Part shown: positions 61,101 through 64,000 of the stretch, piece by piece
Position numbering within the stretch: the stretch's first letter is position 1
Layout: each line of letters begins with the position of its first letter
Assembly: GCA_023247055.1 (NCBI GenBank)
Contig: JAHFHF010000008.1
Coordinates: 733-64,732 of the forward strand
Length of the DNA stretch: 64,000 nt
Origin: Candidatus Omnitrophota bacterium
GTDB lineage: Bacteria; Omnitrophota; Omnitrophia; Omnitrophales; Aquincolibacteriaceae
Reading direction: 5' to 3'
Position numbers: made by a program

Positions 61101-64000
61101 TTAGGTCCATGGCCGTAACGGTTTTGACGCTCATCGGCCCCGATCATACTCGCATCCCACTTTTCCTCACGCAGAGCGACTTGTTCGCGCACGGAGGATT
61201 GCTGATCCTCGACCATTTCCATCACAATGCCGCCGCCGGCAATATCATACTGATCGACGATGACAAAACGGCCCGTGGCTTCAATGTCACCGGTAAGATC
61301 AAACGCTACAGGCCAGGCGCATTCCAAAGTACACTCTGCGACATCGTGCCGCTCAATCATTTTCTTTTCGGTCTTACGCAGTTCGGAGGCGTCCATGACT
61401 TTATGAATCGCTTTGAGGGTAACGGGAACTTTGGCTGTGCCCAGCTTCAGCTTGTATTCTTTTTCCAAAACCATGGGGCTTTTTCCCATCCAGAAAATTT
61501 TGACTTTGAGCAGCGTACTGACCAGCGGCAGAATATCCGCCGCTTTACACATAATCTCACCGCGGTTGATGTAGATCTGCTCTTTCAGCGTAAAACCCGT
61601 GGAATAGCCCGCGGAAACGGCCGTGCGGGCCGCGGCCTGGAACCCTTCAATGGTTTTGATTTCCGAACGTTTGTGCGACGGCAGAAAAACAACGCTGTCG
61701 CCTACGGCAATCGCACCCGATTCCACACGGCCGGCCACGATGCGGCGCTCATCGTGCTGCTCCGTAAATTTGTAAACCGCCTGCACCGGCATGCGGAAAG
61801 GCCGTTTCTCCACGGAAGGGGCTTTCTCAAATCCGTCCAGAACGCCCAAAATGGATGGGCCTTCATACCATTTCATGGATTCGGCCGGATGGATCATGTT
61901 TTCACCCTTAAAAGCCGCGATCGGCACGAAAAACTTGGGCTTTAGTCCGATTTGAGCAAGAAATTCGGTGTAGTTCTTCTGGATATGTTCGAAGGTTTTC
62001 TGGCTGTAGTCGACAAGGTCCATCTTGTTGACGCAGACCGCGACCTGGCGGATGCCGAGCATTGAAAGCAAGTAACCATGGCGTTTGGAGTTTTCCTGAA
62101 TGCCTTCTTTGGCGTCGATAATCAGCAGGGCTGCTTCGGCGCGCGCCGCGCCGCTGATCATGTTTTTTAAAAACTCAATGTGTCCGGGCGCATCGATGAT
62201 GATGTATTCGCGTTTGGCGCTTTTGAAGAAACAGCGGGCCGTGTCAATGGTAATGCCCTGCTCACGTTCATCCTTGAGTGCATCCAGCAAAAAAGCGTAT
62301 TCAAACGGCTTGGCGTTGCGTTCGCAATCCAATTTGACCTGTTCGAGTTTGCCCTGCGGCAGGGAACCGGTATCGCTCAAAAGGCGTCCGATGACGGTGC
62401 TCTTGCCGTGGTCGACATGGCCGACAATGACGATGTTCATTTTTTCTTGAGCGTTAGTCATTTGTGTTTTTCTACGTTTCTCGTCATTGCGAGACACCCT
62501 TCAACTAAAGTCGAAGCAATCTCATTGGATGGCTTCAGCCTTAGTGCCTCGCTGCTTCGCAATGACAAAGGACGGATCACATGTATCCCTCACGGCGAAG
62601 CGTCTCGAGTCCCCCGCCGTCTTCTTTGTCTTGGGCGCGGCCGGCGCGCTCGGCGATATTGGCGAATTTACCAGTCTTGAGTTCCGCAATAATTTCCTGA
62701 ACATTCTTGGCCGTCGATTTGACGGGAGTCGTACAAGGATAGCAGCCCAGCGAGCGGTAGCGTTCGCCCTTGCCGCGGTCAAAATAAAGCGAGGTGATCG
62801 GAATATTTTCCTGGCCGATGTATTCCCAGATATCCAGTTCGGTCCAATCCAGCAGCGGATGAATGCGAATGTGCGTGCCCGGCGCAAAGTCGGTCTTGAA
62901 TTGGTTCCAAAGTTCAGGCGGCTGGTCACCGACCGCCCAATCGCTGCGTTTGTCACGGGGCGAAAAATACCGTTCTTTAGAGCGGCTGCCTTCTTCGTCC
63001 GAACGCGCGCCGACAATCACGCCGGTATAAGGCTCGGTGCTCGTATCGGGTTCATACTTGCCCGTTTTATGGTTCAACCGCTCACGCGTCCACTTGCCGG
63101 CCAGCGTGTTAACCAAGGCTTCGGTTTTAAGCGTCTTGCAGCAGGCCAGCCGGTCCAGATTGCCATCCGGAAACGTACGTTTTTCTGCCAGGGCCTGTTT
63201 ATTCTGCCCGACAATCATGTTCAAACCGAATTCCAGCGCCAAACGGTCGCGGTATTCGATCATTTCTGGAATTTTGTACGCGGTGTCGATGTGGACCAGC
63301 GGAAAAGGGACGTGGCCAAAAAAAGCTTTACGCGCGAGCCATAAGAGGACGGTCGAATCTTTGCCGATGGACCAAAGCATGACCAGGCTCTTGAAGTGAG
63401 CGTAGGCCTCACGCAGGATGTAGACGGATTGGCTTTCTAATTTTTCTAAGTGCCGCATAATTAATGGTGTCTCATGCTCCCTCCCCCACCTTGATCCTCC
63501 CCCGAAAAACACGGGGGAGGAAACAGATCGTATTCAGCATTCAGCTTTAATCCTTTCATTTCTCCCCCCGTGTTTTTCGGGGGGAGATTAAGAGGGGGGA
63601 AATCCGCATGCGGTGTTGTAAATGAACTCACATTTCAAACGAGACGCAACAAAAGAATTATATCACTTTTGAGAGGTTTGAGGGTAGCCATGTGTATAAA
63701 AGTCTACGAAAGAAGTAGGCTTTAAAATCGCAGATCAGGTGATTTTTTTTATATCCAGCAGTTTATTGAGGCTTGCGGCGGGGATGAGTTTTTTTTCGAG
63801 AACAACTTGGCGGATGGTCTTATTCTCTTTGAAAGCGGTTTTGGCCACTTCAGCCGCTTTGTCATAGCCGATGACCGGCACGAGAGGTGTGGAAAGCATC
63901 AGACTTTTTTCAATCTGGCTGCCGCAGACTTCGCGGTTAGCCATGATGCCCTCGACGCAGCGGGTACGGAAAACTTTGATGACATTCGTCAGCAGCCGGA

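Follow-up and report, generated by a model that had tools for sequence, protein, structure and literature searches.

A G/C-rich inverted repeat family with the symmetry of BoxC-type intrastrand triplex motifs in a Candidatus Omnitrophota genome

The window under study, a stretch of 64,000 nucleotides (64 kb) from the Candidatus Omnitrophota bacterium assembly GCA_023247055.1 (contig JAHFHF010000008.1), contains three copies of a dispersed repeat, hereafter Family A. These copies probably represent lineage-specific, G/C-rich class II intrastrand triplex-motif repeats of the BoxC kind, organized as outward-facing inverted doublets. Each arm of the doublet comprises, on one strand, (i) a 9-nt pyrimidine tract, (ii) a loop of 7-9 nt, (iii) a complementary 9-nt purine tract, (iv) a 3-nt TYA linker, and (v) a further 9-nt tract that mirrors (iii). 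This succession of pyrimidine, purine, and mirror purine is the one required by an antiparallel purine-motif intrastrand triple helix, and it therefore joins Family A to the BoxC, PIT, and TM_ECO elements.

Architecture of the Family A repeats

Copy A (8645-8766), copy B (57581-57686), and copy C (63477-63602) are inverted doublets sharing a common orientation, at the coordinates that a preliminary description of the window had assigned to them. A repeat search recovered inverted arms of approximately 42 nt (38-55) in all three copies, 75-83% complementary to each other, in agreement with the reverse-complementary arms of similar length described earlier. Each arm encloses a perfect G/C hairpin of 10 bp (9-10) with a 7-nt loop, as exemplified by TCTCCCCCCG/CGGGGGGAGA, so that the GC hairpin previously noted within each arm is retained with a stem of 9-10 bp. 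The preliminary description thus captured the inverted arms and the hairpins, but overlooked the third, mirror-symmetric purine tract. Alignment of the copies gives 89-96% identity for the right arm and 80-85% for the left arm, and finds no similarity between the centres, which had rightly been called unrelated. Flanks of 110 nt, compared among the copies, show no significant similarity (p = 0.06-0.86), and a longer element reaching beyond the arms was rejected on these grounds.

Structure prediction, one of the checks proposed in the preliminary description, folds every copy, on either strand, into one long hairpin (-57 to -79 kcal/mol, z = -5.6 to -9.2). In copy C, the 42-nt arms are 83% complementary and the predicted fold reaches -72 kcal/mol (z = -8), with the local hairpin of the right arm accounting, as DNA, for -12.2 kcal/mol. 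The sequence of copy C is the same in two independent assemblies (L083, from ENA, and L084, from Logan), and an assembly artefact can thus be discounted.

Read along the plus strand, the right arm consists of TCTCCCCCC, a loop, GGGGGGAGA, TTA or TCA, and AGAGGGGGG, the last tract mirroring the purine tract instead of complementing it; the left arm, read along the minus strand, consists of TCCTCCCCC, a loop, GGGGGAGGA, TCA or TTA, and AGGTGGGGG. A motif finder that demands perfect 9-nt pyrimidine/purine pairing, and a mirror tract in which A or T is permitted opposite A, was run over the 64 kb and identified nine perfect triplets in five of the six arms. These comprise the right arms, all on the plus strand, of copy A (8726-8764, linker TCA), copy B (57645-57683, linker TTA), and copy C (63561-63599, class II motif TCTCCCCCC-GTGTTTTTC-GGGGGGAGA-TTA-AGAGGGGGG), together with the minus-strand left arms of copy A (8646-8685, linker TTA) and copy C (63483-63521, TCCTCCCCC-GTGTTTTTC-GGGGGAGGA-TCA-AGGTGGGGG), one of the nine triplets in the latter being T.A-T. 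The left arm of copy B (57584-57627, minus strand) is degenerate (GGGCGAGGA / AAATGGGGG) and has lost the perfect motif, so that it was missed by the finder and is seen in the alignment. Beyond these five arms, the finder reported from the 64 kb only a further inverted pair at 1264-1341, and it reported nothing from 100 dinucleotide shuffles; for the core pattern of 23 nt, five arms were found against 0.00 expected from the same number of dinucleotide shuffles.

A check of arm covariation, likewise proposed earlier, distinguishes two arm subtypes, TCTCCCCCC/GGGGGGAGA/AGAGGGGGG and TCCTCCCCC/GGGGGAGGA/AGGTGGGGG, which place the internal T, A, and A/T differently. Between the subtypes, these positions move in concert in all three tracts, the pattern that a triplex constraint predicts.

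Comparison with BoxC, PIT, and TM_ECO elements

BoxC (Bachellier) was the first of these elements to be described, followed by the PIT elements (Hoyne et al. 2000) and by TM_ECO, which belong to the same class (Holder et al. 2015, PMC4666352). In the class II layout, a pyrimidine tract (Y), a loop, a purine tract (R), a second loop, and a reverse-Hoogsteen tract (RH) follow one another as Y-loop-R-loop-RH (PMC4666352), and Family A displays the corresponding three tracts, with a complementary R and a reverse-Hoogsteen mirror compatible with G.G-C, A.A-T, and T.A-T triplets. TM_ECO follows the pattern CCCTCNCCC N3-6 GGGNGAGGG N3 GGGNGAGGG, with a second loop of TTA (type A) or CCG (type B); E. 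coli K-12 carries 23 copies, five of which are inverted pairs of two subtypes, and the element is known from 262 proteobacterial genomes (PMC4666352). Its copy number differs strongly among close relatives and the motif itself is associated with local genome variability, while neither promoter or terminator activity nor a link with mobile elements was found (PMC4666352).

Family A resembles TM_ECO in the order Y, loop, R, 3-nt loop, and mirror R, in the 9-nt G/C-rich stems, and in the TTA second loop, as well as in being intergenic and dispersed, lacking a known transposase, and varying in copy number among close relatives. TM_ECO is found either as a single unit or as two inverted units of different subtype, which together span 85-129 bp and form one long hairpin, and Family A is likewise paired. 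The two nevertheless differ in (i) the stem, TCTCCCCCC or TCCTCCCCC in Family A as opposed to CCCTCNCCC; (ii) loop 1, of 7-9 nt with an extra closing C-G pair as opposed to 3-6 nt; and (iii) the host, an Omnitrophota metagenome-assembled genome (MAG) as opposed to Proteobacteria. Stems and loop 1 consequently place Family A outside the strict TM_ECO/BoxC pattern. Among the five K-12 inverted pairs examined, whose centres differ from pair to pair, four have the mirror tracts facing inward, unlike Family A, and one, lldD-trmL (129 bp), has them facing outward as in Family A. The linkers CCG of the related Acetobacteraceae repeats and TTA/TCA of Family A match the two types of E. coli.

Two published sets of limits were considered, those of Hoyne (more than 7 perfect triplets, loops of 0-10 nt) and those of ITxF (stems of 6-15 nt, loops of 1-6 nt) (PMC4666352). 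The 9-nt stems and the 3-nt second loop of Family A lie inside both, and loop 1 (7-9 nt) inside the Hoyne limits only.

Insertion of copy A and the proposed mechanism

Homologues with a named source assign the organism to Candidatus Omnitrophota. The genes for DUF2079, a methyltransferase, and a GT4 glycosyltransferase keep their synteny in relatives whose methyltransferases are 69-91% identical to that of the window, the upper value being that of L150. The spacer between the DUF2079 and methyltransferase genes measures 323 nt in the window; in L151-L156 it spans 16-21 nt, and in L150, 71 nt, and none of these shorter spacers, which represent three related lineages, contains a Family A element. 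The comparison of a 323-nt spacer carrying copy A with element-free spacers of 16-71 nt demonstrates that copy A is an insertion into an intergenic spacer. Approximately 100 kb of fetched sequence from relatives, partly redundant, contain no triplex motif, as against seven arms in the window.

Copy A lies within a larger segment (8590-8829) delimited by a 9-nt direct repeat, AGTTTGTAG (8590-8598 and 8821-8829), with 13-nt inverted repeats just inside (8601-8613 and 8805-8817). The direct repeats are separated by 222 nt, and the segment is missing at the orthologous sites; it may constitute an outer insertion that carries the copy A doublet. Copy B is similarly enclosed in a segment (57464-57712) with a perfect 13-nt direct repeat, TTAAACTTAATAA (57464-57476 and 57700-57712), leaving 223 nt in between, which also accommodate an unrelated hairpin (57489-57560). 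The sequences that extend from the outer direct repeats to the arms are unrelated between copies A and B. Because these inner flanks are unrelated, and because the tRNA-Arg region of the relative L162 is full of duplicated hairpin units, the direct repeats are not taken as target-site duplications of the doublets. Immediately next to the arms of copies A, B, and C, the search for target-site duplications suggested in the preliminary description returned inconsistent matches of 2-5 nt and no duplication.

At the site of copy B, the tRNA-Arg neighbourhood is rearranged in relatives and filled with another hairpin repeat. The long GC hairpin at 57489-57560 (GCGCCCGCCCG...CGGGGGCGGCGC), which adjoins tRNA-Arg, resembles at least five hairpin units around tRNA-Arg in L162 (2100-2900), each preceded by a copy of the TAATGT box found upstream of the tRNA and of the tRNA 5' end.

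By analogy with in vitro work on BoxC, a single-stranded arm would fold into its hairpin and take the mirror tract into the major groove through G.G-C, A.A-T, and T.A-T triplets; alternatively, the whole doublet could extrude as a hairpin or cruciform of approximately 45 bp. The doublets would have entered intergenic spacers by insertion, as established for copy A only. Family A is probably selfish structural DNA; it may otherwise be neutral, and most likely has no dedicated gene-regulatory role. The side effects to be expected are pauses of the polymerase, local rearrangements, and, in transcripts that read through the doublets, a stem-loop of great stability.

Several points weigh against this interpretation. 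Loop 1, at 7-9 nt, exceeds the 3-6 nt of TM_ECO and falls outside the 1-6 nt window of ITxF, and the mirror symmetry could reflect a BoxC-like ancestry instead of selective maintenance. Triplex formation by Family A strands is predicted from this symmetry and from published in vitro studies, and the TM_ECO triplex, observed in vitro by circular dichroism and nuclear magnetic resonance, went undetected both in duplex DNA and in vivo (PMC4666352). The purine-motif triplex is also said not to form in RNA (PMC4666352), so any effect at the RNA level would be that of a plain hairpin. Only three copies and one relative were seen in the 64-kb window and the fetched and scanned sequence. Finally, the 222-223 nt segments bounded by direct repeats around copies A and B hint at a conventional, transposon-like carrier.

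Related motifs in other genomes

A scan of a genome collection with the bare hairpin CTCCCCCCGTG-N5-CGGGGGGAG, the flanks being outside the search pattern, returned at least 82 loci distributed among Thermoanaerobaculia, Acetobacteraceae, Desulfobulbaceae, Planctomycetota, and other groups. Among the matches listed, in which Acetobacteraceae dominate, the hairpin is followed by a perfect mirror tract in 44 readings and by a direct copy of the same composition in 2. A metagenome scan for CGGGGGGAGATNAAGAGGGGG yielded 58 loci, spanning 33-71% G+C, nearly all of which display a complementary pyrimidine tract just upstream, with varied loops. The third-strand base opposite A, scored over 34 distinct R/RH combinations from many genomes among the matches listed, is A in 39 cases, T in 29, G in 1, and C in 1; A or T opposite A, and hardly ever G or C, is the reverse-Hoogsteen rule. 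In viral contigs, the mirror pattern was found at 19 loci, about eight of them independent, as against 0 for a direct-repeat control of the same composition. The viral loci (L163-L181, from IMG/VR), in which the purine mirror repeat is GGGGGGAGATNAAGAGGGGGG, fall into about eight families and mostly lack a neighbouring pyrimidine strand, which suggests that the mirror tract may matter alone.

Singles account for 91 of the arrangements among the listed loci, inward pairs for 10, and outward pairs for 9. In a further MAG (L012), a 22/22 match to the left arm of Family A is paired with a related right arm. No transposase-like gene recurs beside the approximately 140 listed related loci; the recurrent neighbours proved to be housekeeping families or spurious open reading frames (ORFs) running across the repeats, and one recurrent Acetobacteraceae ORF was set aside, having no Pfam match and a variable distance to the repeat. 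A BLAST search against plasmids gave no match, and literature queries made with the sequence strings returned nothing relevant. In Acetobacteraceae loci, for example L040, L043, and L054, the G6 hairpin frequently has beside it a hairpin repeat that is AT-rich (CTTCTTTTTGTGAACAAAAAGAAGCAAAAAAACTTCA) and thus unusual for such G+C-rich genomes.

The triplex-motif unit also occurs inside ORFs, namely those of C-N hydrolases (L130, L089, L102, L114), SerB-like proteins (L124, L136), and a further locus (L141). The unit is always read in the frame LPPxxGGD(Q/K/E)EGG, and its linker is TCA, TAA, or TGA, never TTA, which would make a stop codon. In comparison with PDB 6mg6, the C-N hydrolase has approximately 10 additional residues in a loop. 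Rickettsia palindromic elements (RPEs) are the named comparison for in-frame palindromes, and the likeness consists in the relatives of the arm unit that lie in frame inside protein-coding genes of other metagenomic lineages; in contrast with RPEs, the three copies in the window are all intergenic, and we know of no sequence similarity between Family A and RPEs.

A more ambitious proposal is that the Y-R-mirror-R unit constitutes one pan-bacterial mobile module, phages included, as opposed to several independent local repeats, and in which a single-stranded DNA triplex would serve as propagation intermediate or recognition structure, the unit landing in frame as the peptide above, and in which the three-tract symmetry would be retained for propagation by an enzyme of the host or of the element. 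We regard this proposal, taken as a whole, as unlikely.

Alternative explanations and gene context

A Pfam search of 50 ORFs from the window revealed functions in polysaccharide synthesis, sulfate activation, and housekeeping, and no transposase, integrase, or Y1 transposase, in keeping with the earlier remark that the window contains no transposase. This result bears on the two transposition models that the preliminary description had raised, those of repetitive extragenic palindromic sequences (REPs) or bacterial interspersed mosaic elements (BIMEs), and of miniature inverted-repeat transposable elements (MITEs).

The REP/BIME label is the nearest of those offered, inasmuch as Family A is a dispersed, structured, intergenic repeat. 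In the REPIN/BIME model, a REP doublet is moved in trans by a single-copy REP-associated tyrosine transposase (RAYT, a Y1/HUH transposase) by way of a single-stranded hairpin. By definition, a REPIN consists of two inverted short palindromes that together form a long hairpin, and the architecture of Family A, with its inverted short palindromes, spacer, long hairpin, intergenic location, and restriction to a lineage, fits this definition; copy number that varies across relatives and arms without an abutting target-site duplication, as Y1 transposition predicts, fit as well. However, the GTAG or CGTC tag that marks most REPs (Di Nocera 2013; PMC3733652) is absent beside the stem in the Family A arms, the centres are unrelated, so that the whole element including its spacer is not homologous between copies, and each arm possesses an extra mirror purine tract. 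E. coli RayT gives no match to the window by tblastn, and no Y1_Tnp domain is present among the 50 ORFs. The sole RAYT encountered near a related hairpin, 53% identical to E. coli RayT and encoded at 189-713 of L062 (Acetobacteraceae MAG JADLHF010000013.1), adjoins a classical GTAG-type REP of its own (GTCGGATGGCGCTTCGCTTATCCGACCTAC) and not the G6 triplex-motif hairpin, which lies approximately 1 kb away; the RAYT link was accordingly rejected. A REPIN origin of Family A is therefore improbable.

A classical MITE would be a deletion derivative of an insertion sequence, mobilized by a DDE transposase that recognizes the terminal inverted repeats and generates a target-site duplication. The inverted arms of approximately 42 nt, the insertion of copy A, and the segments enclosing copy A (222 nt, with 13-nt inverted ends and a 9-nt direct repeat) and copy B (223 nt, with a 13-nt direct repeat) speak for such an origin. 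These direct repeats nevertheless stand 13-105 nt from the arms, differ in length (9 versus 13 nt), and have no counterpart found for copy C; the sequence between direct repeat and arm is unrelated between the copies, and local duplications of the kind seen at tRNA-Arg in L162 could account for the repeat around copy B. Centres and flanks that are unrelated, arms with no abutting duplication, and the lack of a transposase domain in the 50 window ORFs, or of a transposase recurring at related loci, leave the MITE-like interpretation of the preliminary description unsupported, and we hold it to be an improbable account of Family A. Nor does the window contain an insertion sequence with the same termini that could have served as the parent.

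The flanking genes of all three copies, which are intergenic as had been reported, are encoded on the minus strand. Copy A is located downstream of the DUF2079 gene (stop 8846) and 5' of the class I methyltransferase gene (start 8520); copy B, downstream of a 168-aa ORF and 5' of tRNA-Arg(TCT) (57381-57456); and copy C, in the gap that separates fumC (stop near 63737) from cysD, whose ATG at 63458 is 24 nt away. The position immediately 5' of cysD had been correctly described, whereas copies A and B, placed previously after the methyltransferase and after tRNA-Arg, respectively, lie upstream of these minus-strand genes.

Family A could be viewed as a functional RNA, in which an intercistronic stem-loop would end transcription, stop 3' exonucleases, or control the gene that follows (cysD, the methyltransferase, or the tRNA-Arg leader). 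All copies reside between same-strand genes in a single orientation relative to transcription, their hairpins are very stable as RNA, and no promoter-like site intervenes in the 24 nt that separate copy C from the cysD ATG, so that copy C is probably transcribed. Yet the arms lack a T/U tract, their tails being ATTAAG or ATCAAG, and none was called in the terminator scan, which argues against an intrinsic terminator, a role that the preliminary description had entertained. The neighbouring genes have unrelated functions, the relatives lack the element upstream of the methyltransferase, and BoxC/PIT elements showed no promoter or terminator activity (PMC4666352). A cysD leader was rejected, since a related species, whose cysD is 79% identical at the nucleotide level, has no element, the synteny being different there. 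At gathering thresholds, Rfam reports only the two tRNAs in the window and no family matching Family A, and a permissive search reports generic sub-threshold hairpins, the best being a miRNA model at 39 bits against a threshold of 87. A functional RNA is thus quite improbable.

G-quadruplexes or i-motifs built from the G5-7 and C5-7 runs are very improbable: each copy does have three plus-strand G-runs of at least 5, and the viral purine mirror tract is often free of an adjacent pyrimidine strand, but on the same strand every G-run has, at a distance of 7 nt, a C-run that complements it perfectly, so that the 10-bp G/C hairpin should outcompete a quadruplex. Neither the A residues that are conserved nor the A/T rule would play a part in a quadruplex.

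Additional repeats in the window

The inverted pair at 1264-1341 represents a related family of classical BoxC/TM_ECO-like type and lies between the SxtJ and DUF5989 genes, with its third-strand tracts facing inward. It comprises a plus-strand arm (1264-1297), CCCTCTCCC-TCT-GGGAGAGGG-TCAG-GGGTGAGGG, and a minus-strand arm (1309-1341), CCTTCTCCC-GGA-GGGAGAAGG-TTA-GGATGAGGG; the pair nearly fits the TM_ECO pattern, one arm having a 4-nt second loop and the other a variant stem. In the relatives L155 and L156, the SxtJ-DUF5989 spacer is occupied by a different repeat. A further dispersed family, GAGATTGCTTCAGC ... GCTGCTTCGCAATGAC, is located at 28565-28625, 28746-28806, 57058-57141, and 62528-62566, and is related to a CGTCATTGCG...GCGAAGCAATC insert in L155.

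Biological significance

Knowledge of BoxC/PIT triplex motifs goes back to the 1990s, and as far as we are aware they have neither an agreed function nor a known way of spreading. Family A is a new family in this known, poorly understood class of repeats, and widens it to the uncultivated phylum Omnitrophota. Copy A provides a clean empty-site comparison that reveals insertion, and the arm subtypes provide covariation across three tracts of the kind anticipated from a triplex. In annotating the window, the copies are to be regarded as repeats and not as regulators of cysD or tRNA-Arg. Beyond the window, the scans suggest repeated occurrence of one sequence type, GGGGGGAGA-TNA-AGAGGGGGG, in genomes with a G+C content of 33-71%, in contigs of viruses, and, in frame, within genes. 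If this recurrence reflects a common mechanism, the question of how such motifs are maintained becomes testable, and what merits further attention is the presence of the triplex-motif unit across phyla, on phages, and in frame within genes.

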